From a virus (lineage: Duplodnaviria; Heunggongvirae; Uroviricota; Caudoviricetes): a stretch of DNA of 32,084 nucleotides. This document shows positions 1 through 32,084 of the stretch, piece by piece. The stretch lies in the IMG/VR virus record IMGVR_UViG_2802429222_000004; one strand, given 5' to 3'. The stretch's first letter is position 1. Each line of letters begins with the position of its first letter. The translations under genes were made by a program, and so were the position numbers. A model generated the notes under the pieces. It was given only the letters and a program-made list of their open reading frames with translations, was not told the DNA's origin and did not search any database.

Positions 1-1014
1 TTACTCTACTGTGGACACTGTGTGGACACTCTCGGACCCAGTACCACCTCTTAGCGGATTAAGAGAAATGGCGTCCTGAAGGTACTCTGGCGCAAAATGA
101 GCGTAAACCATAGTTTGCTCAATCCGCGTGTGACCTAGTATCCGTTGTAGCGTGATAATACTTCCTCCATTAATCATGAAATGAGTGGCAAAGCTGTGCC
201 TTAGTGCATGTGTGGCTTGCCCCATTGGCAAATCCGGTTTTATTGCTTTCATTGTTCGTCTGAAGCGAGGGTAATCAGCATCAGGGAATAAAAAACCTCG
301 TTTGTTATCCGCGATCATTTTGGCAACAGCCTCTGAGATCGGGACGGTGCGTGGTTTGTTTGTTTTCGTTTTAACAAACGTGACGCGGTTATGGATGATA
401 TTTTCTGCTTTCAAACGAGCTGCTTCTCCCCAACGTGCTCCAGTACTCAGGCAAAGAATCGCAATCTTTTTGTTGTCTCCGTCAAGAGCAGCAAGCAGTA
501 AGGCAATTTCTTCCTGCGTGAGATAGCCTGTGTCTGGTTTTTCCTCCTTAAGCCTTTTTGTCCCTCTGATAGGGTGCTCACCAAAGAATAACTCCGCTTC
601 AATCAGGGCTGTAAACATGCCGCTAATACATGTTAAATCACGATTGATACTCGAAGGTTTAATACCCTGACTTCTTCGGGTGGCGCAGTACTGGCTGATA
701 AGCGATTTCGTAATTTGAAATGCGCATGGGTCATTCGTTATTTTTGTGAAGATTTCAATTTTTCCAAGATTAGATTTCCCATGCTCTTCGTGTTTACCCT
801 TTAAATCCCACCAGATCTGTGTCAGCTCCGACAGACGTCGCTTGTCTGTTGGTTTTGATAGCCATTCTTTATTGTGGTGGTTGTACAACGTGTATTTCTC
901 GAAAGCGACAGCTTCGCTTTTCTTATCAAACTTCCTACGGATGCGTTTTCCATTACGTCCAGTAGGGCGGATGTCCACTTCATATCGACCATCATCGAGT
1001 TTTTTGATTGCCAT
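1..1014 (-). CDS. int: Tyrosine integrase (P2 Int-like, 337 aa)
   Basis: 337 aa, the same length as P2 Int. C-terminal catalytic region HALRHSFATHF...LGHTRIEQTMVYAH carries the R/H/Y signature of tyrosine recombinases. It sits at the prophage end pointing toward att. Confidence 0.9.
   Translation of the reverse strand: MAIKKLDDGRYEVDIRPTGRNGKRIRRKFDKKSEAVAFEKYTLYNHHNKEWLSKPTDKRRLSELTQIWWDLKGKHEEHGKSNLGKIEIFTKITNDPCAFQITKSLISQYCATRRSQGIKPSSINRDLTCISGMFTALIEAELFFGEHPIRGTKRLKEEKPDTGYLTQEEIALLLAALDGDNKKIAILCLSTGARWGEAARLKAENIIHNRVTFVKTKTNKPRTVPISEAVAKMIADNKRGFLFPDADYPRFRRTMKAIKPDLPMGQATHALRHSFATHFMINGGSIITLQRILGHTRIEQTMVYAHFAPEYLQDAISLNPLRGGTGSESVHTVSTVE
10..29. repeat. Direct repeat TGTGGACAC x2, candidate Int arm-type binding sites (P' arm)
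   Basis: TGTGGACAC at 10-18 and 21-29. Similar TGTGG(T/A)C motifs occur at 30491-30510 on the other prophage arm. Confidence 0.5.
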
Positions 1015-1129
1015 CAGAAAACCCTCCGAGTGGTGTGTTTTTTTGCGACTACTAATCGCTTTTTTCGTGGTGGCTGAAATTTAGCCACCAATAGTAGGCA
1101 CTTGTGATGAATATATTCACGATGAATTG

Positions 1130-1429
1130 TTAACCAGTCTTTTGACCGGAGTGGGGCGACGTTGTTTCGTTTTGCCCAAAGTGTGCGAGAGCGGGCGCAA
1201 TTTGCCCGGACTCAGGAGCGATCTGATTGGTCATGAACCATAAAGTGTATTTGGTGAATTGTGGGGTCTGCAGGATGTTCATCATGACATCTGTTGGAGG
1301 TGTTGAACGACCACTTTCATAGTAACTCAGCGTGCCATACGGAACCCCTGTTAAATCAGCAAGTTGTTGTCTGCTCAAATACTCTGATTTTCGCATTAAG
1401 ACTATCTTCTCGCTTATCGTGTTTGACAT
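1130..1429 (-). CDS. C: Immunity repressor C (P2 C-like, 99 aa)
   Basis: 99 aa with an HTH segment (SRQQLADLTGVPYGTLSYYESG). Divergent from cox and directly upstream of int, as in P2. Confidence 0.85.
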   Translation of the reverse strand: MSNTISEKIVLMRKSEYLSRQQLADLTGVPYGTLSYYESGRSTPPTDVMMNILQTPQFTKYTLWFMTNQIAPESGQIAPALAHFGQNETTSPHSGQKTG

Positions 1430-1543
1430 GGTGTTTAGATCTCAATAGTATTTAGTTTAGATGTAGATTGTTTAGTGCTTGGATGTGGGCACTAAAAGGC
1501 ATTATAAGACATTAAACGCAATTCATGAGGGCTAGAGGACGAC
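1430..1543. promoter_or_regulatory. Lysis-lysogeny switch region (divergent Pc/Pe promoters and C operator repeats)
   Basis: Intergenic region between divergent C and cox. GTTTAGAT is directly repeated at 1433-1440 and 1455-1462 (22-bp spacing, two helical turns), with more TTTAG motifs through 1477. Confidence 0.55.
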
Positions 1544-1819
1544 ATGAGCAAGCAAGTAACACTCATGACTGATGCGATTCCTTATCAGGAGTTCGCAAAA
1601 CTAATAGGAAAATCGACAGGAGCGGTTCGTCGGATGATCGATAAAGGAAAGCTGCCTGTAATTGATATGACCGATCCACAATCAGCTTCAGGTCGTGCAG
1701 GTGAATATTGGGTATACCTTCCGGCATGGAATAACGGACTAAAACTGGCTTATGAAAGCCGCCCTAAAGAGATTCGTGACGGCTGGTTGATGTGGTTAGG
1801 TCTCGGTGAACCACGTTAA
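1544..1819 (+). CDS. cox: Cox excisionase / directionality factor (91 aa)
   Basis: 91 aa, the same size as P2 Cox. First gene of the rightward early operon, opposite C. Confidence 0.85.
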   Translation: MSKQVTLMTDAIPYQEFAKLIGKSTGAVRRMIDKGKLPVIDMTDPQSASGRAGEYWVYLPAWNNGLKLAYESRPKEIRDGWLMWLGLGEPR

Positions 1820-2000
1820 GGAGAACCGTATGAATGAGCCTCGTTGTATTGCTCAGTTACTGCGTAACGAAAGCCCCAGGGCGATTGACTTCACCATCAC
1901 CCACGGTAAGGGGCGTAAGGGAATCATTATCCGCACCAAAAAACAGAGTCCGTTAAAAAAGGCTCTGACCTTTCTGAAAAGCCGGAGGGTATGGAAATGA
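1806..2000 (+). CDS. Small early protein (P2 orf78 position)
   Basis: 64-aa ORF overlapping the cox stop and the B start, at the position of P2 orf78. Confidence 0.5.
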   Translation: MNHVKENRMNEPRCIAQLLRNESPRAIDFTITHGKGRKGIIIRTKKQSPLKKALTFLKSRRVWK

Positions 2001-2497
2001 CAGTGATGACGCTTAATCTCGTTGAAAAACAGCCAGCAGCTATGCGCCGGATAATTGGTAAGCATCTGGCCGTCCCTCGCTGGCAGGAGACATGCGATTA
2101 TTATAATCAGATGATGGAACGCGAACGGCTAACGGTTTGCTTTCATGCGCAGTTAAAACAGCGTCACGCAACGATGCGTTTTGAAGAAATGAACGACGTC
2201 GAACGTGAACGACTGGTATGTGCAATTGATGAATTGCGTGGGGCATTCTCAAAACGCCGTCAGGTCGGTGCAAGTGAGTATGCATATATTAGTTTTTTAA
2301 CAGTCAGTCAGCGTCGTACTTTATTTATGCATGCGGGATTGACAGAAAAAGAATTCAATCAGCCGTACTGGCGCATTAATGAAGAATCATGTTACTGGCG
2401 TGATGCTTTATTCCGTGCATTACGTGAATTATTCAGCCTGTTTGAGTATGCACCGACAATTCTGACGGCGGTAAAACCAGAGCAATATCTGCATTAA
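1991..2497 (+). CDS. B: Replication protein B (DnaB helicase loader-like, 168 aa)
   Basis: Position after cox and a size close to P2 B (166 aa). Confidence 0.75.
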   Translation: MEMTVMTLNLVEKQPAAMRRIIGKHLAVPRWQETCDYYNQMMERERLTVCFHAQLKQRHATMRFEEMNDVERERLVCAIDELRGAFSKRRQVGASEYAYISFLTVSQRRTLFMHAGLTEKEFNQPYWRINEESCYWRDALFRALRELFSLFEYAPTILTAVKPEQYLH

Positions 2498-2561
2498 ATA
2501 ATTAACCAGAGTTTTTAACGCACTTAATCGTGCGGGGGCTTCTTTTTGCCTGGAGAAAGTC

Positions 2562-2786
2562 ATGCATACAGTTTCTGAAAATCAGTGCGATAAATACGCA
2601 TTACTGCTGAAACAGGCCAGAACAGAAGCACAGGCCGACGCTGCGACGCGCTTTTCTTCTCATCTTGACGCCATGATTCGCCACATCACAAAGGCGGAGT
2701 TATCCCGCGTGGAGATAGTCGAGCTGCTCAGTCAGGAGTCGGAAAAATTTCACAATATCGGATTGTCTCGCGGGGAGGTGCTTTGA
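2562..2786 (+). CDS. Early hypothetical protein (P2 orf80 position)
   Basis: 74-aa ORF in the early operon between B and A. Confidence 0.6.
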
Positions 2787-3085
2787 TGTCCTGTTCTCGT
2801 TCGGTTGTATTACTGAATAACGCCTTAAAAATAGCTGTTATGGAAAATGGTGATTTGTCTCTTATTCAACTTTGTCTTGATAAAGAAAAACGCGACATAA
2901 CTGAATCTGTTATCGCGATTTATCAGAATGAATTAAACCTCCTGTCTGATGTGGTCAATTTACTTGTTAAACGCGCTGTGTTCCACAAACAAATTTCCTC
3001 AGTGGATGAACTGACAAAATTAACGACAGAACTCGCCAGTTATTGCGCTGATGTATCCAGGAAACTTAACGATAAAAGGAGCTGA
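2783..3085 (+). CDS. Early hypothetical protein (P2 orf81 position)
   Basis: 100-aa ORF whose start overlaps the preceding stop (translational coupling). Confidence 0.6.
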
Positions 3086-3087
3086 TA

Positions 3088-3312
3088 ATGCCGGACAACG
3101 TAGATTTTATTCAGGAACAACAGGCTGAATTACTGGAGCGCCAGATTAACGCGGCAAGGGTAAAACATTGCTGTGCTTCTGCGCTGGTTTGCGAAGAGTG
3201 TGACACGCCAATACCTGCTGCCCGTCGTGCGGCTTACCCGTCAGCCACGCGTTGTGTTTCCTGCCAGTCAGTCTTTGAAGCAAAAAACAAGCATTACCGG
3301 AGAATGGCATGA
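3088..3312 (+). CDS. TraR/DksA-like C4 zinc-finger protein (P2 orf82 position)
   Basis: 74 aa with CxxC...CxxC (CEECDTPIPAARRAAYPSATRCVSCQ), typical of the TraR/DksA C4 zinc-finger family. Confidence 0.7.
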   Translation: MPDNVDFIQEQQAELLERQINAARVKHCCASALVCEECDTPIPAARRAAYPSATRCVSCQSVFEAKNKHYRRMA

Positions 3313-3584
3313 GTATTCGTATCGAAATTGGCGAACGTTATGTCGTTACCAGTGACAGCTTTCAGTTTATTCTCCACGAGAAAAAGAGAGCGGAAAGCGG
3401 TAAAAACGCCGGTCAGGAATGGCTGGCGGTGGTTGGTTATTATCCGAAATTAAGCCAGCTCGTTTCCGGCCTGATGCATCACGATATTCTGACCGGAAGC
3501 GCAAAGTCTTTTGCTGATTTAAACGCGCAGGTTGAGCAACTCAGCAGGCGTTGTTCAGAGGCTTTTGGCTCATATGGACGTTAA
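3309..3584 (+). CDS. Early hypothetical protein (P2 orf83 position)
   Basis: 91-aa ORF coupled to the flanking genes. Confidence 0.6.
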   Translation: MSIRIEIGERYVVTSDSFQFILHEKKRAESGKNAGQEWLAVVGYYPKLSQLVSGLMHHDILTGSAKSFADLNAQVEQLSRRCSEAFGSYGR

Positions 3585-5844
3585 AGCCTCCGGGCGTTTT
3601 GTCCCTCCGTCAGCATTTGCCGCAGGCACCGGTAAGGCGTTTACCGGTGCTTATGCATGGAACGCGCCACGCGAGGCTGTCGGGCGCGAAAGACCCCTTA
3701 CACGTGACGAGATGCGTCAGGTGCAAGGTGTTTTATCCACGATTAACCGCCTGCCTTACTTTTTGCGCTCGCTGTTTACTTCACGCTATGACTACATCCG
3801 GCGCAATAAAAGCCCGGTGCACGGGTTTTATTTCCTCACATCCACTTTTCAGCGTCGTTTATGGCCGCGCATTGAGCGTGTGAATCAGCGCCATGAAATG
3901 AACACCGACGCGTCGTTGCTGTTTCTGGCAGAGCGCGACCAGTATGCGCGCCTGCCGGGGATGAATGACAAGGAGCTGAAAAAGTTTGCTGCCCGTATCT
4001 CATCGCAGCTTTTCATGATGTATGAGGAACTCTGCGATGCCTGGGTTGATGCACATGGCGAAAAAGAATCACTGTTTACGGATGAGGCTCAGGATCACCT
4101 GTATGGTCATGTTGCTGGCGCTGCACGAGCTTTCAATATTTCCCCTCTCTACTGGAAAAAATACCGTAAAGGACAGATGACCACGAGGCAGGCATATTCT
4201 GCCATTGCCCGTCTGTTTAACGATGAGTGGTGGACTCATCAGCTTAAAGGCCAGCGTATGCGCTGGCATGAGGCGTTACTGATTGCTGTCGGGGAGGTCA
4301 ATAAAGACCGTTCTCCTTATGCCAGTAAACATGCCATTCGTGATGTGCGTGCGCGCCGCCAGGCAAATCTGGAGTTTCTTAAATCATGTGACCTTGAAAA
4401 CAGGGAAACCGGCGAGCGCATCGACCTTATCAGTAAGGTGATGGGCAGTATTTCTAATCCTGAAATTCGCCGGATGGAGCTGATGAACACCATTGCCGGT
4501 ATTGAGCGTTACGCCGTCGCAGAGGGTGATGTGGGGATGTTTATCACGCTGACCACGCCGTCAAAGTATCACCCGACACGTCAGGTCGGAAAAGGAGAAA
4601 GTAAAACCGTCCAGCTTAATCACGGCTGGAACGATGAGGCATTTAATCCGAAGGATGCGCAGCGTTATCTCTGCCGTATCTGGAGCCTGATGCGCACGGC
4701 ATTCAAGGATAATGATTTACAGGTCTACGGTTTGCGTGTCGTCGAGCCACACCACGACGGAACGCCGCACTGGCATATGATGCTTTTTTGTAATCCACGC
4801 CAGCGTAACCAGATTATCGAAATCATGCGTCGCTATGCGCTCAAAGAGGATGGTAACGAAAGAGGAGCCGCGCGAAACCGTTTTCAGGCAAAACACCTTA
4901 ACCGGGGCGGTGCTGCGGGATATATCGCAAAATACATCTCAAAAAATATCGACGGCTATGCACTGGATGGTCAGCTCGATAACGATACCGGCAGGCCGCT
5001 GAAAGACACTGCAGCGGCTGTTACCGCATGGGCGTCAACGTGGCGTATCCCGCAATTTAAAACGGTTGGCCTGCCGACAATGGGCGCTTACCGTGAACTA
5101 CGCAAATTGCCTCGCGGCGTCAGCATTGCTGATGAGTTTGACGAACGCGTCGAGGCTGCACGCGCCGCCGCAGACAGTGGTGATTTTGCGTTGTATATCA
5201 GCGCGCAGGGTGGGGCAAATGTTCCGCGCGATTGTCAGACTGTCAGGGTTGCCCGTAGTCCGTCGGATGAAGTTAACGAGTACGAGGAAGAAGTCGAGAG
5301 AGTGGTCGGCATTTACGCGCCGCATCTCGGCGCGCGTCATATTCATATCACCAGAACGACGGACTGGCGCATTGTTCCGAAAGTGCCGGTCGTTGAGCCT
5401 TTGACTTTAAAAAGCGGCATCGCCGCGCCTCGGAGTCCTGTCAATAACTGTGGAAAGCTTGCCGACGGTGGCGATCCAGTTATGACACCTACGCCGTCTG
5501 AGCATGCCGCAGCGGTGCTAAATCTTGTCGATGATGGGGTTATTGCATGGGATGACCCCGAAGTTGTGACGGTGCTCAGGAGTGCATTAAAACACGGCGC
5601 GCCGCAGCAAAATCGACAGCAAAGAAGCGATGAGCCATTAAAATCGAATCAGATAGCACCATCAGGGCGAATGACAAAAGCCGAGAGGGCTCAGATTCCG
5701 CGCATCCGCTTCGAACTGGCGCAGCAGGGTATCACGCCGCAGCGGTGGGAACTTCAGGCGCTGGCTCGTGGCGGAATAGTGGTTTATGGCGAAAAAAGAT
5801 TTGTATACCCGATAGCGGACGAGTGGGTGAAGCATGAAGGGTGA
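3574..5844 (+). CDS. A: Rolling-circle replication initiator endonuclease A
   Basis: Large ORF (track 3532..5844) at the position of P2 A. The ATG at 3574 (MDVKASGRF...) gives about 756 aa, close to P2 A (761 aa). The exact start is uncertain. Confidence 0.85.
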   Translation: MDVKASGRFVPPSAFAAGTGKAFTGAYAWNAPREAVGRERPLTRDEMRQVQGVLSTINRLPYFLRSLFTSRYDYIRRNKSPVHGFYFLTSTFQRRLWPRIERVNQRHEMNTDASLLFLAERDQYARLPGMNDKELKKFAARISSQLFMMYEELCDAWVDAHGEKESLFTDEAQDHLYGHVAGAARAFNISPLYWKKYRKGQMTTRQAYSAIARLFNDEWWTHQLKGQRMRWHEALLIAVGEVNKDRSPYASKHAIRDVRARRQANLEFLKSCDLENRETGERIDLISKVMGSISNPEIRRMELMNTIAGIERYAVAEGDVGMFITLTTPSKYHPTRQVGKGESKTVQLNHGWNDEAFNPKDAQRYLCRIWSLMRTAFKDNDLQVYGLRVVEPHHDGTPHWHMMLFCNPRQRNQIIEIMRRYALKEDGNERGAARNRFQAKHLNRGGAAGYIAKYISKNIDGYALDGQLDNDTGRPLKDTAAAVTAWASTWRIPQFKTVGLPTMGAYRELRKLPRGVSIADEFDERVEAARAAADSGDFALYISAQGGANVPRDCQTVRVARSPSDEVNEYEEEVERVVGIYAPHLGARHIHITRTTDWRIVPKVPVVEPLTLKSGIAAPRSPVNNCGKLADGGDPVMTPTPSEHAAAVLNLVDDGVIAWDDPEVVTVLRSALKHGAPQQNRQQRSDEPLKSNQIAPSGRMTKAERAQIPRIRFELAQQGITPQRWELQALARGGIVVYGEKRFVYPIADEWVKHEG

Positions 5845-6170
5845 TTTATATCCATCTAAATCATGATGTTATGATGGCCGTGTGAGTTCTTTTCTGATTG
5901 GGGCTGCGTTCGACGGCTTGAAATGTTGTAAATGCTCATAATCTGGTTTAAAGTGTTTTTATGCCAACGACTAGGAGCATCTCCAGTCATAAATGTTGGC
6001 CTCTACAGGCCTTTATATAGTGTTGCTCTTGTACTGCCTTCTCTTTCGAGAGAAGGTATGTACAAGAAGTAAAGCCTGCGAAGGGAGGGTGTCTGGGGTG
6101 AGGAAAGACTGAGAGTTAAAGCATTCATCTTAGAATCCATTCAACTCAAAAAACAAAAGCTCAGCCAACG
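5845..6170 (+). ncRNA. Putative retron msr-msd non-coding RNA region (boundaries not resolved)
   Basis: About 330 bp of non-coding DNA directly upstream of a retron-sized RT. It contains a 39-nt hairpin at 6028-6066 (stems CTTGTAC/GTACAAG and CCTTCTCT/AGAGAAGG, TTCG loop), a GGCC-TCTACA-GGCC hairpin at 5998-6011, and a -35-like TTGAAA at 5918-5923. Confidence 0.4.
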
Positions 6171-7160
6171 ATGAAACCCCTTAGTCTCGAAAAAGCCTTC
6201 AATATTGCATTCTTCGAAAAAGATTCCTTTCAAAACTTTCTTTCGTTTGAACCATTTCAACAAACTAAATTTATAACCTTTGATGAAAGGTTAATTGCTG
6301 AGCCCACTTCTAAACTAAAAGAGTATCACAAATTCATAAATGAATTTGTTCTTTCATACTTGAAAGTAAATAAGGATGTTGTGTTTTCGTATAGAAAAGG
6401 AAGCAGCACTTATGATGCAGTAAAACTTCACGCCTGTAGTAAGATATTCTTCAATACTGATATTAAAAGCTTTTTCCCATCGATAACTCGTGAATATGCA
6501 CGATCAGTTTTAGTTGATAACTTATCGAACGTTCCCATTTCCGATTTAAATATACACTTGGATAAAATTTTAGATTATATTATTATCGATAATTCGTTGC
6601 CTGTAGGGTTCCCGACATCACCAGCTTTCAGCAATGCATGTTTATATGACTTTGATGTTGAGATGCAGCAATATTGTATTAACCATGAATATATATTCAC
6701 ACGCTATTCAGATGATATTATTATTTCCTCTGAAAATGATGAGGGCTTTGAGAATATTCATTCTGTAGTAAGTGACCTGCTGGGTGAGTTTGGGAAGGGA
6801 CATTTCAAACTAAACTCAGCAAAAACTAAATTGATTAAAAAAGGCAGTAAGATTAAGCTGCTGGGGATGGTTATTTTACCGTCTCAGATAGTCTCTGTTG
6901 ATATTAAAATAAAAAGAAAGCTTGAGCATTTGATTCATTTTTATGTAACGGATAAAGATAAATTTATAGATTCTATAATAAAAGATCCTAAGGTTAAAAC
7001 TAGCGGATTGAATGATAGTGAGATCTTGGAAAAGGGCGTTAATACAGTTTCTGGTCTTTTGAATCATATAAACACAATTGATAAGAGTTATCTCGATAAG
7101 CTAAAGAGAAAATACGGAAATACGATTGTCGATATGCTTTTTTACAAGAATGTAAATTAA
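6171..7160 (+). CDS. Reverse transcriptase, retron-type size (329 aa)
   Basis: RT motifs read directly: TDIKSFFPSI (domain 1/2), LPVGFPTSPAFSNACL (domain 4), and catalytic YSDD within IFTRYSDDIIIS (nt 6705-6716). Low GC compared with the flanking phage genes. Confidence 0.8.
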   Translation: MKPLSLEKAFNIAFFEKDSFQNFLSFEPFQQTKFITFDERLIAEPTSKLKEYHKFINEFVLSYLKVNKDVVFSYRKGSSTYDAVKLHACSKIFFNTDIKSFFPSITREYARSVLVDNLSNVPISDLNIHLDKILDYIIIDNSLPVGFPTSPAFSNACLYDFDVEMQQYCINHEYIFTRYSDDIIISSENDEGFENIHSVVSDLLGEFGKGHFKLNSAKTKLIKKGSKIKLLGMVILPSQIVSVDIKIKRKLEHLIHFYVTDKDKFIDSIIKDPKVKTSGLNDSEILEKGVNTVSGLLNHINTIDKSYLDKLKRKYGNTIVDMLFYKNVN

Positions 7161-7161
7161 A

Positions 7162-8514
7162 ATGAAAATAAACATTGAGATCTCGAAAATCCAGCATGTT
7201 GAACATATGTCATTTGCTATTGATCTTTCTGAAAATAAACTGACTTGCATTGTAGGAAAGAACGGTGCTGGAAAGACAACGCTAATCAAAGCAATTAAAA
7301 ATTTACAATCAGCAGATACATTCATAAAGACATCTTCTAGATATATATTCAATCCTGACAGTAGTATAGTATATAATATTAATGATCAAGATATAGTATA
7401 TGTCTATGATGAGAATTTGAAGGTAATAGATACTAAGCAAATAATTCCAGCAGATATAAAATCCAATCTTTATGTCGAGTTGCCCATTCCTCATGGAATG
7501 AGGTTCAATAACTTCCCAACACTTAGTAAAATTGATACTGAACTTAGAAAAAGTATTGCGTTTGAAAGCTATAGCGTTCCCGAGGATTTGATAAATATAC
7601 TCAATGAGGTATATCAGTCTTCTTCTTACAATAATCTTAAAGCATTTTCTGTAAAAAATGAAATTTTCTATTTCAGATTGAATGAGAACGGAACATACAT
7701 AAGGGAGGATTACTTTAGCTCGGGTGAGTATTTTATTTTGAATTTATTTAGAATGATTGAGCTCAAAAGAAAATTCATTGTCATAGATGAGATAGATATA
7801 TCACTAGACTCTTCGGCGCAAGTCCATCTTATAGCAGTGCTAAGGAAATATTGTCAGAGACACTCGGTGAATATTGTATTCACAACACATTCACTTGCTT
7901 TAATGCAAACGCTGAATGATGATGAATTGTACTATATGTGCGAAGGTGATGCTGGAACTACAATTACAAATCGATCATATAATTATATAAAAAGTACGCT
8001 TTTTGGATTTAAAGGATGGGATAAGTACATTCTTACTGAAGATGAAGTTCTGCAAAATTTCTTAGAATATATAATTAATGCTCCTGGGAGTGATTACTTC
8101 TACGAATATAAAATAATATATGTTGGTGGAGGAACTAATGTCATTGATTTAATGCGTCGTAATGAGAGAGAGAGCTTTCTCACGACTCAACAGAATGTGA
8201 TCTCAGTGTTAGACGGAGATCAATTAGGTCAAAGGCATGCTCGAGGTGAAAATATTTTATGCATACCTTTCCAAAGCGTTGAGAAGGATTTCTATCAAGC
8301 ATACGGCCAAGATGAATCGATCCCGAGAGTTACAACTAGAGGTAACGATAAACTTGATAAGCAAGTTTATCGAGGGGTAGTGAAAACCTATGACAACGGT
8401 TGGGATGAAACTAGGATTTTTGAATACCTTGAGAGGTTAAAGCCTGATGAATGTGAGGCTTTCAGGCAAAAAATTAGAGCATTTCTCCAAAGAAATATTT
8501 CGGCAGAGGGTTGA
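7162..8514 (+). CDS. OLD-family ABC ATPase with C-terminal TOPRIM-like domain (450 aa)
   Basis: Walker A GKNGAGKTT (nt 7255-7281), signature-like FSSGEY, Walker B FIVIDEID, H-loop TTHSLA. The C-terminal half has TOPRIM-like motifs YILTEDE, VGGGTN and VLDGDQ. The start is 2 nt after the RT stop, so the two are one operon. Confidence 0.75.
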   Translation: MKINIEISKIQHVEHMSFAIDLSENKLTCIVGKNGAGKTTLIKAIKNLQSADTFIKTSSRYIFNPDSSIVYNINDQDIVYVYDENLKVIDTKQIIPADIKSNLYVELPIPHGMRFNNFPTLSKIDTELRKSIAFESYSVPEDLINILNEVYQSSSYNNLKAFSVKNEIFYFRLNENGTYIREDYFSSGEYFILNLFRMIELKRKFIVIDEIDISLDSSAQVHLIAVLRKYCQRHSVNIVFTTHSLALMQTLNDDELYYMCEGDAGTTITNRSYNYIKSTLFGFKGWDKYILTEDEVLQNFLEYIINAPGSDYFYEYKIIYVGGGTNVIDLMRRNERESFLTTQQNVISVLDGDQLGQRHARGENILCIPFQSVEKDFYQAYGQDESIPRVTTRGNDKLDKQVYRGVVKTYDNGWDETRIFEYLERLKPDECEAFRQKIRAFLQRNISAEG

Positions 8515-8656: not shown

Positions 8657-8675
8657 GGCGAGGCGGGGAAAGCAC
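8657..8675. other. cos site (19-nt cohesive end GGCGAGGCGGGGAAAGCAC)
   Basis: Matches the P2 cohesive-end sequence as I recall it, and lies about 170 bp from the end of Q, as in P2. Confidence 0.6.
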
Positions 8676-20517: not shown

Positions 20518-23136
20518 ATGAGCACGAAATTTAAAACCGTTATCACTACTGCCGGAGCCGCAAAGCTGGCAGCCGCCACTGTCCCCGGCGGGAAAAAAGT
20601 AAACCTGTCTGCAATGGCCGTGGGTGATGGTAATGGCAAATTGCCGGTGCCGGATACCGGTCAGACGAAGCTGGTGCATGAGGTCTGGCGTCATGCCCTG
20701 AATAAAGTCAGCGTGGATAATAAGAATAAAAACTATATCGTGGCTGAACTGGTTGTTCCGCCAGAAGTGGGCGGCTTCTGGATGCGTGAGCTTGGTCTGT
20801 ATGACGATGCCGGAACACTGATTGCGGTATCCAACATGGCAGAAAGCTATAAGCCTGAACTCGCTGAAGGCTCCGGGCGTGCGCAGACCTGCCGCATGGT
20901 TATTATTGTCAGTAACGTGGCGTCCGTTGAGCTGAGTATTGATGCCAGCACGGTGATGGCGACGCAGGATTACGTCGATGACAAAATCGCAGAGCATGAG
21001 CAGTCCCGCCGCCATCCTGACGCCACACTGACAGAAAAAGGCTTTACTCAGTTAAGCAGCACAACAAACAGCACCAGTGAAAAGCTGGCGGCAACGCCAA
21101 AGGCAGTAAAAGCAGCCTATGACAATGCTGAGAAACGTCTGCAGAAAGACCAGAACGGTGGCGATATTCCAGATAAGGGCGCTTTTCTGGACAATGTTGG
21201 CGTTACCAGCCTGACGTTTATGAAAAACAACGGCGAAATGCCGGTTGATGCTGATCTGAATACATTTGGTCCCGTTAAAGCTTATCTGGGTACATGGTCA
21301 AAAGGCACTTCGACTAATGCACAGATAGCCAAACACTTCCCGGAAGAGAATGCCGTTGGTGTCCTGGAAGTATTTGCAGCAGGAAATTTTAACGGAACAC
21401 AGCGTTACACTGTTCGCAATGGAAATACTTATATTCGCCACCTGACGGCTAAATGGAACGGCAAAGATGGTCCGTGGAGCGTATGGCGTAACGTTCAGGG
21501 GACGGCCAGAACGCTGGATGACAGTATGGATCTCGATTTTCTGGCCGGGGAGGATAACCTGGGTACATGGAGAAACAGTTCCAGTACGTTAGCTTCTCTT
21601 GCGTTGCACTATCCCGAAGCTGGTAGTTACGCGCAGGGAGTGCTTGAAGTTATGAAAGGTGGTGGATTCAGTTATACCCAGCGTTATACCACTCGCCGTG
21701 GGAACATGTATGTCCGCTGCCTTGCTGCAAACTGGGATGCATCAAACCCACAGTGGGAACCGTGGCTGAGAATTGGCAGCCAGACTGCAAGCAGCTTTTA
21801 TGACGGTGATTTGAATGATCTAACCGACCCTGGTATTTACAGTGTGACGGGTAAAGCAACCAATGGTCCATTGCTGGATTCATCTGGTGCAACACTACTA
21901 GGGGTGTTAGAGGTTATCAGACGTTTTGATTACGTTGCTGTATTGCAACGCTATACCACTACAGGGACAGGAACGACAACGAAAGGTCGCACGTTTGAGC
22001 GCGTCTATACCGGCAGTTCGTGGAGCGAATGGCGGGAAGTCTACACCTCGTATTCACTTCCCCTGAATCTGGGTATCGGCGGTGCTGTGGCAAAGCTCAC
22101 TAGCCTGGACTGGCAGACCTACGACTTTGTGCCGGGCAGTCTGATAACCGTTCGGCTTGATAACATGACCAACATTCCCGACGGTATGGACTGGGGCGTC
22201 ATTGATGGCAACCTGATAAACATCGCAGTTGGTCCGAGTGATGATTCCGGTACGGGGCGCTCAATGCATGTATGGCGCAGCACTGTAAGTAAAGCGAACT
22301 ACCGCTTTTTTATGGTGCGTATTTCAGGAAATCCGGGAAGCCGCACGATCACGACAAGACGTGTGCCAATTATTGACGAAGCTCAGACATGGGCGGCGAA
22401 ACAGACATTCAGCGGTGGTCTTTCAGGCGAACTGTCCGGCAATGCGGCTACAGCAACAAAGCTGAAAACGGCAAGGACAATTAACGGCGTAAAATTTGAC
22501 GGCTCGGCAAATATTGAAGCGTTTCCGCCAGGTGTTCCGCTGCCGTGGCCATCAGATACACCACCTGCAGGCTATGCAATTATGCAGGGGCAGACGTTTG
22601 ATAAGGCAGCATATCCGAAACTGGCTATAGCCTATCCTTCTGGTGTTATTCCGGATATGCGCGGTTGGACAATCAAGGGCAAACCCGCCAGTGGGCGTGC
22701 TGTATTGTCACAGGAACAGGACGGGATTAAATCGCATACTCACAGCGCCAGTGCGTCAAATACGGATTTGGGAACGAAAACAACCAGTTCGTTTGATTAC
22801 GGGACGAAGACAGTCAGTACGTTTAACTACGGAACAAAAACCACTAATACCACTGGTAACCATACACATACCATTTACAGAGGGAATGCCAATACTAATG
22901 GTGAAACCGGTAAAACAGGCTTTGACAACCCATCGTTTAATGGCACATCAGGAGCTGCCGGGAATCATGCCCACACGGTAGATATTGGTGCACATAATCA
23001 TACGGTTGGTATTGGTGCACATTCACACACGGTTGCTATTGGCTCACACGGGCACTCTATTACCGTTAATGCTACAGGTAATACAGAAAACACCGTCAAA
23101 AACATCGCATTTAACTATATTGTGAGGCTTGCATAA
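20518..23136 (+). CDS. H: Tail fibre protein H (872 aa, mosaic extended C-terminus)
   Basis: The N-terminus ([24 protein letters not shown]...) is the conserved P2 H-type baseplate-attachment domain. The C-terminal part is longer than P2 H (669 aa) and ends in GTKT and HxHT repeats. Confidence 0.85.
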
Positions 23137-23714
23137 TGGCTTTCAGAATGAGTGCAGAAGCACAAACTATCCGCGTTTTCAATTTACTTAATGGAACCAA
23201 TGAGTTTATTGGCGAAAGTGATGCATATATTCCGCCGTATACTGGCCTGCCTGCAAACAGTACAGATATTGCACCGCCTGATATTCCTGCTGGTTATGCA
23301 GCCGTTTTCAATGCAGATGAAATGAAATGGGAACTGATGGAAGACCATCGCGGAAAGACCGTCTACGAAACGAAAACAGGAGCAGCCATTTATATTTCTG
23401 AACTTGGCGTATTACCTCCAGACGTGACAGCTATTTCCCCGGAGGGGGATTATCAGAAATGGGACGGAAATGCGTGGGTGAATGATGAGAATGCAGAACG
23501 TGATGCGCTTGTCAGAGCGGCGGAGTCTCAGAAGAAAGAGCAGATTGCATATGCAGGTGAAATTATTGCCACGCTGCAGGATGCTGTCGATTTAGATATG
23601 GCTACCGAGGAAGAAAAGTTAAGCCTGACACACTGGAAAAAATACCGTGTGCTACTGAATCGCGTTCAGCCGGAAAATGCCCCGGATATTGAATGGCCGG
23701 AACTACCGCAATAA
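23136..23714 (+). CDS. G: Tail fibre assembly chaperone G (192 aa)
   Basis: Start overlaps the H stop, at the position of P2 G. Confidence 0.8.
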
Positions 23715-23846: not shown

Positions 23847-25037
23847 ATGAGTGACTATCATCACGGCGTGCAGGTGCTGGAGATTAACGACGGCACCCGC
23901 GTCATTTCCACCGTATCCACGGCCATTGTCGGCATGGTCTGTACGGCCAGCGATGCGGATGTCGAAACCTTCCCCCTCAATAAACCGGTACTGATTACCA
24001 ATGTGCAGAGCGCAATTGCAAAGGCCGGTAAAAAAGGCACGCTGGCGGCATCGTTGCAGGCCATCTCCGACCAGTCAAAACCGGTCACCGTTGTCGTACG
24101 TGTGGAAGACGGCACCGGCGACGACGAGGAAACGAAACTCGCGCAGACCGTTTCCAATATCATCGGCACCACTGACGAAAACGGTCAGTACACCGGACTG
24201 AAAGCCCTGCTGGCGGCGGAGTCGGTAACCGGTGTTAAACCGCGTATTCTTGGTGTGCCGGGGCTGGATACCAAAGAGGTGGCTGTTGCACTGGCATCAG
24301 TCTGTCAGAAGCTGCGCGCTTTCGGATATATCAGCGCATGGGGCTGTAAGACCATTTCCGAGGTGAAAGCCTATCGCCAGAATTTCAGTCAGCGTGAGCT
24401 GATGGTCATCTGGCCGGATTTCCTCGCATGGGATACGGTCACCAGTACCACCGCCACCGCGTATGCCACCGCCCGTGCACTGGGCCTGCGCGCTAAAATC
24501 GACCAGGAGCAGGGCTGGCATAAAACGCTGTCCAATGTCGGGGTGAACGGTGTTACCGGCATCAGCGCATCTGTATTCTGGGATTTGCAGGAGTCCGGCA
24601 CCGATGCTGACCTGCTTAACGAGTCAGGCGTCACTACGCTGATTCGCCGTGACGGTTTCCGCTTCTGGGGTAACCGTACCTGCTCTGATGACCCGCTGTT
24701 CCTCTTTGAAAACTACACCCGCACCGCGCAGGTGTTGGCCGACACGATGGCTGAGGCGCACATGTGGGCGGTGGACAAACCCATCACCGCAACGCTGATT
24801 CGCGACATCGTTGACGGCATCAATGCCAAATTCCGTGAGCTGAAAACAAACGGCTATATCGTGGATGCGACCTGCTGGTTCAGCGAAGAATCCAACGATG
24901 CGGAAACCCTCAAGGCCGGAAAACTGTATATCGACTACGACTATACCCCGGTGCCTCCTCTTGAAAACCTGACCCTGCGCCAGCGTATTACTGATAAATA
25001 CCTGGCAAATCTGGTCACCTCGGTTAACAGCAATTAA
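23847..25037 (+). CDS. FI: Contractile tail sheath protein FI (396 aa)
   Basis: 396 aa, matching P2 FI. Confidence 0.9.
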   Translation: MSDYHHGVQVLEINDGTRVISTVSTAIVGMVCTASDADVETFPLNKPVLITNVQSAIAKAGKKGTLAASLQAISDQSKPVTVVVRVEDGTGDDEETKLAQTVSNIIGTTDENGQYTGLKALLAAESVTGVKPRILGVPGLDTKEVAVALASVCQKLRAFGYISAWGCKTISEVKAYRQNFSQRELMVIWPDFLAWDTVTSTTATAYATARALGLRAKIDQEQGWHKTLSNVGVNGVTGISASVFWDLQESGTDADLLNESGVTTLIRRDGFRFWGNRTCSDDPLFLFENYTRTAQVLADTMAEAHMWAVDKPITATLIRDIVDGINAKFRELKTNGYIVDATCWFSEESNDAETLKAGKLYIDYDYTPVPPLENLTLRQRITDKYLANLVTSVNSN

Positions 25038-30230: not shown

Positions 30231-30449
30231 ATGTTTCATTGTCCTTTATGCCAGCATGCCGCACATGCGCGTACAAGCCGCTATATCACTGACACGACAA
30301 AAGAGCGTTATCACCAGTGCCAGAACGTGAATTGCAGCGCCACGTTCATCACTTATGAGTCGGTACAGAGATACATCGTGAAGCCGGGAGAAGTCCACGC
30401 CGTAAGGCCGCACCCGTTGCCATCAGGGCAGCAAATTATGTGGATGTAA
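30231..30449 (+). CDS. ogr: Late gene transcriptional activator Ogr (zinc finger, 72 aa)
   Basis: The internal ATG at 30231 gives MFHCPLCQHAAHARTSRYITDTTKERYHQCQNVNCSATF..., the Ogr C2C2 zinc-finger protein, 72 aa (track ORF 30168..30449). Confidence 0.9.
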   Translation: MFHCPLCQHAAHARTSRYITDTTKERYHQCQNVNCSATFITYESVQRYIVKPGEVHAVRPHPLPSGQQIMWM

Positions 30450-30462
30450 TTACAAACAGAAA

Positions 30463-30486
30463 GCCCCTCAGTCGAGGGGCTTTTTT
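30463..30486 (+). terminator. Rho-independent terminator after ogr
   Basis: GCCCCTC-AGTC-GAGGGGC hairpin followed by TTTTTT. Confidence 0.75.
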
Positions 30487-30550
30487 GTCGATGTGGTCAA
30501 TGTGTGGACGTGACCAGAAATAAATCCTTTTATTTCAATTGATTATGCAT

Positions 30551-30637
30551 AAAAAATAAGCCCGTGTAAGGGAGATTACACAGGCTAAGGAGGTGGTTCC
30601 TGGTACAGCTAGCATTTTATGGGTTATGTTTTTCAGC
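30551..30637 (-). ncRNA. cyaR: CyaR (RyeE) Hfq-dependent sRNA
   Basis: The reverse complement reads GCTGAAAAACATAACCCATAAAATGCTAGCTGTACCAGGAACCACCTCCTTAGCCTGTGTAATCTCCCTTACACGGGCTTATTTTTT, matching the E. coli CyaR sequence as I recall it. The terminator hairpin plus U-tract forms its 3' end. Confidence 0.75.
30552..30578. other. attR core (P2 att core AAAAAATAAGCCCGTGTAAGGGAGATT)
   Basis: Exact 27-bp match to the P2 attachment core as I recall it. Lies between the ogr terminator and host DNA and overlaps the 3' end of cyaR. Confidence 0.75.
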
Positions 30638-30639
30638 GA

Positions 30640-30700
30640 AACAGATAATAACCTTAATAAATGCAGCCGTATGTGATCGGTTTCTAAGAATTTTCTATCC
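30640..30700 (-). promoter_or_regulatory. cyaR promoter with candidate class II CRP site
   Basis: On the cyaR strand, a TATTAT -10 sits 7 nt upstream of the inferred +1. A TGTGA-N6-TCTAA element at 30672-30687 is centred about 41.5 bp upstream of +1. Confidence 0.5.
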
Positions 30701-30722
30701 GGGGAAAAATAATCGAAATGAA

Positions 30723-32084
30723 TCACTTACCGTGCGGGTTACGCGTGGTTTCCCCGGAGAAATTACGCATCAGCAGTGCGTAATTCAGCTCGAGATCCTG
30801 CGGAACCGGGAGCCACACGGTATAGCCATCGCCAGGCGCGACCGGCATCGCTTCACCTTTGGCGTTTTCCATGTGCTCAAGGGTAAAGTTGATATTGCCC
30901 TGTGGCGTCATCAGTTCCAGGCTGTCGCCAACGGAGAATTTATTTTTCACCGCTACGGCTGCCAGAGAGCCTTTACGCTCACCGGTAAACTCTCCAACAA
31001 ACTGCTGGCGGTCAGAAACGGAATAACCGTATTCGTAGTTCTGGTAATCGTCGTGAGTATGACGACGCAGGAAACCTTCGGTGTAACCACGATGCGCCAG
31101 GCCTTCCAGTGTTTCCAGCAGGCTGGTGTCGAACGGTTTGCCCGCAGCGGCGTCATCGATAGCTTTACGATAAACCTGCGCGGTACGTGCACAATAGTAG
31201 AAAGATTTAGTGCGGCCTTCGATTTTCAGCGAATGCACGCCCATTTTGGTCAGGCGTTCAACATGGGCGATGGCGCGCAGATCTTTCGAGTTCATGATGT
31301 AAGTGCCGTGCTCATCTTCAAACGCGGTCATATACTCGCCCGGGCGCTGGGCTTCTTCGATCATAAACACTTTGTCGGTTGGCGCACCGATACCCAGCGT
31401 CGGCTCGACGTTTTGCACCGGAATCGGCTCGTATTTGTGTACGATGTTGCCAACGTCATCTTCTTTCCCTTCCTGCACGTTGTACTCCCAACGGCAGGCG
31501 TTGGTGCAGGTGCCCTGGTTTGGATCGCGTTTGTTGATGTAGCCAGAGAGCAGGCAGCGGCCGGAGTAGGCCATGCACAGCGCGCCGTGAACGAAGATTT
31601 CAAGCTCCATATCCGGAACCTGATTGCGGATCTCTTCAATCTCTTCCAGCGACAGCTCGCGGGAGAGGATCACGCGGGTCAACCCCATTTGCTGCCAGAA
31701 TTTCACCGTCGCCCAGTTTACGGCGTTGGCCTGCACGGAAAGGTGGATCGGCATTTCAGGGAAGTGTTCACGCACCAGCATAATCAGCCCCGGATCGGAC
31801 ATAATCAGTGCGTCCGGCCCCATTTCCACCACCGGTTTCAGATCACGGATAAAGGTTTTTAGCTTGGCATTGTGTGGCGCAATGTTGACCACGACATAAA
31901 ACTTTTTCCCCAGCGCGTGGGCTTCATTGATGCCGAGCTGGAGATTTTCGTGGTTAAATTCGTTGTTGCGCACACGCAGGGAGTAACGCGGTTGCCCCGC
32001 ATAAACAGCATCTGCGCCATAAGCGAAAGCGTAACGCATATTTTTCAGCGTTCCCGCCGGGGAAAGGAGTTCCGGTTTAAACAT
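30723..32084 (-). CDS. yegQ: U32-family peptidase-like protein YegQ (453 aa)
   Basis: A complete 453-aa ORF ending at the window edge. The sequence (MFKPELLSPAGTLKNMRYAFAYGADAVYAGQPRYSLRVRNNEF...) is the U32 family protein encoded next to cyaR in E. coli. Confidence 0.85.
   Translation of the reverse strand: MFKPELLSPAGTLKNMRYAFAYGADAVYAGQPRYSLRVRNNEFNHENLQLGINEAHALGKKFYVVVNIAPHNAKLKTFIRDLKPVVEMGPDALIMSDPGLIMLVREHFPEMPIHLSVQANAVNWATVKFWQQMGLTRVILSRELSLEEIEEIRNQVPDMELEIFVHGALCMAYSGRCLLSGYINKRDPNQGTCTNACRWEYNVQEGKEDDVGNIVHKYEPIPVQNVEPTLGIGAPTDKVFMIEEAQRPGEYMTAFEDEHGTYIMNSKDLRAIAHVERLTKMGVHSLKIEGRTKSFYYCARTAQVYRKAIDDAAAGKPFDTSLLETLEGLAHRGYTEGFLRRHTHDDYQNYEYGYSVSDRQQFVGEFTGERKGSLAAVAVKNKFSVGDSLELMTPQGNINFTLEHMENAKGEAMPVAPGDGYTVWLPVPQDLELNYALLMRNFSGETTRNPHGK

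Follow-up and report, generated by a model that had tools for sequence, protein, structure and literature searches.

The integrase of bacteriophage P2 is a heterobivalent tyrosine recombinase, and the preferred attachment site of this phage in E. coli is called locI in the P2 literature. CyaR is an sRNA whose expression depends on cAMP-CRP and which regulates targets such as ompX. Its gene, cyaR (ryeE), is an already known, ordinary and documented target of P2. In E. coli, ryeE has been described as a known phage target, with reference to Wassarman et al. 2001 (PMC3603311), and 'cyaR RNA' is tabulated as the site where Wphi2 (P2) is inserted in E. coli W, ogr-D' in K-12 and P2*B in E. coli B, the same site being empty in Crooks/ATCC 8739 (PMC3032704, Table 2). 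Beyond these two papers, the literature searched yielded no further explicit statement that joins cyaR to the P2 attachment site.

Two other groups of integration sites are close enough to be compared. Phage 186 resides in a tRNA-Ile gene, and Fels-2 and SopE-phi in ssrA (PMC3448106). The element described below shares with such tRNA- and tmRNA-targeting phages a tyrosine integrase, a core that lies over the 3' end of a structured-RNA gene and the regeneration of that gene by the phage copy. It differs from them in that the target is the terminator of an Hfq-type regulatory sRNA rather than a tRNA-like acceptor/T-arm, and in the length of the core (27 bp here vs. 50-110 bp for some tRNA-targeting relatives; PMC3448106). 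The Salmonella sRNA gene ryeB/sdsR is also a prophage integration site (PMC3603311, PMC3333887) and provides a second instance of an sRNA locus acting as a recurrent phage attachment site, although it differs in its sRNA, its phages and its core.

The DNA analyzed here, a stretch of 32,084 nucleotides that we refer to as the window, almost certainly carries a P2 prophage integrated at the classical site in an E. marmotae-like host, with the 3' end of cyaR as the core and the CyaR terminator rebuilt. As proposed in an earlier reading of the sequence only, a prophage lies to the left of cyaR; it is of the P2 type, running from int (1-1014) to ogr (30231-30449) and ending in a P arm, an IHF region and the core. 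The sequences, the junctions, both copies of the core, the empty sites and the completeness of the genes were all read directly from sequence. Like the P2 elements already described at cyaR (Wphi2, P2*B and the K-12 ogr-D'/ogrK-yegZ element), this prophage has the 27-bp core and the P arm/IHF/P' layout, shares Int at 99.1% and C, Cox and Ogr at 100% identity, is located between cyaR/yegQ and the yegS side and leaves cyaR intact. It differs from them in its E. marmotae-like backbone, with no yegR and with attL abutting the region upstream of yegS, in the type I-B retron found at the tin/old position and in a different H/G tail-fibre cassette.

The core, AAAAAATAAGCCCGTGTAAGGGAGATT, is present once in the window, as a single exact match at 30551-30577 (plus strand), and has the same sequence as the annotated attP of P2 (AF063097, 24356-24382). 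The sequence-only reading had correctly seen a 27-bp core within the terminator stem and U-tract of CyaR, but its coordinates (30552-30578) were one base off. A direct comparison of P2 attP with an unoccupied host site gave a run of identity of exactly 27 nt. We read the junction by aligning four sequences (attR, attP, attB and the K-12 remnant): identity to P2 attP ends at 30577, while identity to the empty E. marmotae site begins at 30551 and continues at 100% to the end of the window. The right flank as a whole (30551-32084) is 100% identical to an unoccupied site (locus L015). On the left side, BLAST against phage records matched P2 and further Peduovirus genomes at 97-98% identity up to 30577, and the right boundary of the prophage is now set at this position.

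The P2 record AF063097 is annotated with ogr, a terminator, the Int P arm, an IHF site and the attP core in that order, and the window is collinear with it without gaps. The terminator of ogr and the F operon is found at 30460-30483 (plus strand; P2 24265-24288), where it was also detected as inverted repeat I1. The P arm (30488-30515, plus strand) aligns collinearly and without gaps to the P2 'Int P arm' at 24293-24320 and holds two Int arm-type repeats, TGTGGTCA at 30492-30499 and TGTGGACG at 30503-30510 (both plus strand), which match the published consensus tgTGGaCa (PMC3448106). The putative IHF region of attP would occupy 30519-30552 (plus strand), judging from its collinearity with P2 24324-24357. 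When window 30543-30551 was compared with L012-L016 and L002, the 8 nt immediately left of the core, TTATGCAT, agreed with the flank of the core in E. coli, discussed below as a possible fossil, and not with P2 (TTGTACGT).

The sRNA gene itself lies on the opposite (minus) strand. The sole Rfam match above threshold in the whole window was to CyaR/RyeE (RF00112) at 30554-30639 (minus strand), with a score of 100.7 bits vs. a gathering score of 47 (E = 3e-19) and coverage of the full length of the model (positions 1-85 of 85). The 87 nt at 30551-30637 (minus strand), GCUGAAAAACAUAACCCAUAAAAUGCUAGCUGUACCAGGAACCACCUCCUUAGCCUGUGUAAUCUCCCUUACACGGGCUUAUUUUUU, are found exactly (87/87 nt) in K-12 BW25113, in E. 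coli ATCC 8739 and at the empty site of the E. marmotae type. The identification of 30551-30637 as cyaR, which had been put forward together with an alignment of its reverse complement as the means of checking it, is thus confirmed by an exact match, and the gene should be annotated as intact. Upstream of it, the predicted cyaR promoter region and the cyaR-yegQ spacer (30638-30722, minus strand) are host DNA by comparison with the empty site L015, to which they are identical at 85/85 positions, vs. 5 substitutions and 1 indel relative to E. coli K-12. The spacer leads to the flanking host gene yegQ (30723-32084, minus strand), which encodes a protein of 453 aa with a Pfam Peptidase_U32 match; RefSeq names the gene adjoining cyaR yegQ/trhP. 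The cyaR gene here is the orthologue of K-12 cyaR, adjoining yegQ, and the placement of the prophage at the cyaR-yegQ locus stands, with a spacer 100% identical to that of the empty E. marmotae-type site.

An RNA fold, a terminator scan and an inverted-repeat search (repeat I2) agreed on the limits of the CyaR intrinsic terminator, a hairpin at 30559-30586 (minus strand) with an 11-bp stem and a 6-nt loop. Its arms occupy 30559-30569 and 30576-30586, its loop 30570-30575 and its T/U tract 30551-30558. The att core therefore spans the U-tract, the entire 3' arm, the loop and 2 nt of the 5' arm, while the remaining 9 nt of the 5' arm (30578-30586) are found in the host only. After the stem, the tail of CyaR reads UUAUUUUUU, predicted to form a Rho-independent 3' end of the Hfq-binding type. 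Since phage and host have the same core sequence, cyaR is restored exactly and is not truncated. The sequence-only reading had gone one step further, stating that the 3' end of the gene comes from the prophage. The absence of truncation holds at all 87 positions; the origin of the 3' end can only be inferred, since the point of exchange is invisible within an identical core and so, therefore, is the number of phage-derived bases in cyaR.

The other junction cannot lie in the window, because the window begins at the int stop codon. A second copy of the core to the left of int had been called for in advance, and we found it in contig L008 (GCA_002965465.1, PTSZ01000008.1), which encodes exactly this Int, is 100% identical to window positions 1-7014 and is probably the contig from which the window derives; attL was read from this contig, compared with the window over 7 kb only. 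In L008, the second core is at 7094-7120, corresponding to 80-106 nt left of window base 1. P' sequence borders it on one side and a host flank, ...GAAAGCGTGGTACA, upstream of yegS on the other. The same flank borders the single core of unoccupied sites of the E. marmotae type (L012-L016 and L018). The P' arm, identified by a pattern search and equivalent to the P2 'Int P' arm' at 24470-24496, consists of two direct TGTGGACA repeats (10-17 and 21-28; overall 10-28, plus strand) located inside the 3' end of int. The set of attP, attB, attL and attR is complete. When Rfam was applied to 18 loci containing the core, CyaR was found in 16 and at neither of the two attL copies (L008 and L033); the 16 positive loci were from Escherichia, Shigella, Kluyvera and two records labelled Enterobacter hormaechei.

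What is known of P2 and of tyrosine integrases in general suggests how this arrangement would have arisen. Int would bind the arm-type repeats in P and P' as well as the core, IHF would bend the P arm, and strand exchange would take place within the 27 bp common to attP and attB; Cox would direct excision, of which the prophage should be capable. The expected attL product, host yegS side - core - P' - int, would lie just beyond the window, and the attR product, ogr - terminator - P arm - core - rest of cyaR, would carry its core at 30551-30577. The CyaR terminator (3' arm, loop, 2 nt of the 5' arm and U-tract) would in this way be rebuilt base for base, and expression of CyaR would be expected to continue. 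The position of the exchange within the core is likewise deduced from this general knowledge; the literature searched contained nothing usable on the strand-exchange positions of P2 within the core.

Could integration nonetheless subtly alter host RNA? CyaR would then end in a tail one U shorter, joined to a new downstream sequence, and the half-terminator left at attL would no longer insulate yegS, with read-through from the C-int transcript as a possible consequence. The base just 3' of the core is indeed altered, attR reading ...UUAUUUUUU-A vs. ...UUAUUUUUUU-G at the empty site of the E. marmotae type. CyaR has 6 terminal U's at attR and 7 in the empty sites of this type (L012-L016) and in ATCC 8739 (L002). 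However, K-12 cyaR, which is located at a P2 remnant, also has the 6-U end of the attR type, and this well-studied CyaR shows that the shorter tail is compatible with function. At attL, int and yegS point in the same direction and are 191 nt apart, with no terminator-like site between the int stop codon and yegS in a terminator scan (L008 6900-7300). The RNA fold of the orphan half of the CyaR terminator at attL was no better than that of shuffled sequences (z = -1.6). Read-through of a lysogenic C-int transcript into yegS is conceivable from this arrangement, although it is pure inference. Overall, we consider an effect of this kind unlikely. We also looked for a substitute terminator at attL and rejected the idea, since no terminator-like site was present and the fold was unconvincing.

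Window positions 1-30577 correspond to a phage P2 (Peduovirus) prophage that, as far as its gene content can tell, is apparently intact. Its first gene, int (1-1014, minus strand), encodes a P2 tyrosine integrase of 337 aa with Pfam Int_N and Phage_integrase domains, and its last gene, ogr (30231-30449, plus strand; Pfam Ogr_Delta), encodes the late-gene activator. The immunity switch (1133-1819) consists of the C repressor gene (1133-1429, minus strand) and cox (1544-1816, plus strand). The cos site, GGCGAGGCGGGGAAAGCAC at 8657-8675 (plus strand), matches the P2 cohesive end exactly. The essential genes of P2 are present, both Q, P, O, N, M, L, X, Y, K, R, S, V, W, J and I, and H, G, FI, FII, E, T, U, D, ogr, int, C, cox, B and A. 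All are full length and lack internal stops, with 92-100% amino acid identity to P2 except for H and G.

A defective or cryptic P2 remnant comparable to the K-12 ogrK-D' relic, fixed in the chromosome and incapable of excision or of particle formation, would nevertheless be in keeping with the history of the site. Relics are common at cyaR: K-12 retains only D' and ogrK beside the gene, and E. coli W, K-12 and B are tabulated with partial elements (PMC3032704). The window lacks orf30, fun(Z), orf91, tin and old, and the C-terminus of H and G are replaced. However, the P2 annotation marks each of the missing genes as nonessential, and the prophage retains intact cos, P and P' arms, cores at both ends, int, C and cox alongside the full-length essential genes. 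In place of H and G there are intact ORFs of 872 and 192 aa, as is usual when a tail-fibre cassette is swapped. We therefore regard a dead remnant as very unlikely, less likely still than an effect on host RNA. The tail-fibre genes H and G (20518-23714) are unlike those of P2, as in a host-range cassette swap; the match of H to its P2 counterpart (669 aa) is confined to the first 207 aa, and G is 39% identical to P2 G over its C-terminal part.

At the tin/old position, the apparently intact P2 prophage carries a type I-B retron (6171-8514, plus strand), predicted by PADLOC, with a reverse transcriptase gene at 6171-7160 (RT_I-B, 6.5e-110) and an ATPase-Toprim effector gene at 7162-8514 (ATPase-Toprim_I-B, 2e-179). 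A search of the PDB returned only distant retron reverse transcriptases for the former and no match for the effector. The 326-nt gap upstream of the reverse transcriptase gene contains a long hairpin (6027-6067) that may be the msd stem (region analyzed, 5845-8514); an Rfam search of this gap matched no known msr family.

The last alternative, that the 27-bp match is a coincidence or the junction an assembly chimera of phage and host contigs, has a negligible probability and was rejected, since the core had 0 chance matches in 100 shuffles, the same junctions are seen in several independent assemblies (attL in L007-L009; attR in L017 and L019), the breakpoints coincide with the annotated P2 attP, and the ogr/P-arm-cyaR junction recurs in 1,224 of the 5,424 complete E. 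coli genomes with a match (~23%).

The sequences flanking the prophage point to an Escherichia marmotae-like host. YegQ has the same amino acid sequence as its counterpart in E. marmotae CP025979.1, a genome accession that a paper on this species cites (PMC6650469), whereas E. coli genomes are only 93-97% identical to the flank in the window. Genomes of the E. marmotae type have yegS directly after cyaR, without yegR. The host background is the sole new aspect of this integration. It adds one more clean case of a phage that uses the terminator of a regulatory sRNA as its att site and rebuilds it; beyond a correct annotation, as P2 itself with retron cargo and with cyaR intact, it has little significance.

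The comparison of empty sites brought out a different feature, the yegR island of E. coli, and the fossil att sequences that may surround yegR are the only part of this work that might add knowledge. Compared with E. marmotae, the yegS-cyaR interval of E. coli ATCC 8739 (L002 2196-3036) contains an extra island of ~815 bp that holds yegR and is absent from E. marmotae and E. ruysiae. It has a GC content of 39% vs. 50-54% in the flanking genes, and the product of yegR has a lipoprotein-like signal sequence. We compared the two ends of the island with the window attR (30488-30577) and with L008 7015-7205. On the right, the island ends in a decayed P arm, TCGATGTGGTCAATG...ACCAGAgATA, that directly abuts the intact core, with a local alignment score of 38 vs. 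19.7 +/- 2.4 for shuffled sequences (shuffle maximum, 30). The left end is exactly where E. coli departs from E. marmotae and is collinear with the real attL (core + P' side) at ~65% identity; its fixed-position global score was 16 vs. 4.1 +/- 1.9, a value reached by 2/3000 shuffles, and other windows within the island scored at most 7.

These data tip us slightly towards the idea that the 'unoccupied' P2 site of E. coli is the scar of an earlier P2-type element, in which case the association between phage and cyaR would be older than the current prophages. On this view, yegR would be an orphan that an integrated element left behind, and the 3' end of cyaR throughout E. coli would have undergone one integration or more; P2 phages arriving now would be integrating beside a fossil of their own attachment site. 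The fossil att sequences around yegR would then bear on how integration hot spots gather orphan genes. The phage-related evidence at the island is limited to the att-like ends. A phage origin of yegR itself was considered and found to be unsupported: only two phage records matched, and both resemble excerpts of a prophage or chromosome.

The core at the cyaR 3' end is not confined to E. coli and E. marmotae-type genomes. We found it, exactly, in Shigella, in E. ruysiae, in another Escherichia species, in many Kluyvera species and in two records labelled Enterobacter hormaechei; the E. ruysiae example is a lysogen with both junctions. Variants that resemble the P arm abut the same core in Kluyvera intermedia (L039) and in other Escherichia records (L021 and L040), which suggests further elements or relics that use the cyaR core outside E. 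coli. In L039, neither Ogr nor gpD was found within 8 kb. The two records titled Enterobacter hormaechei (L020 and L031) encode a YegQ that is 99% identical to that of the window, and the Rfam score of their cyaR is as in Escherichia; their species labels look doubtful.
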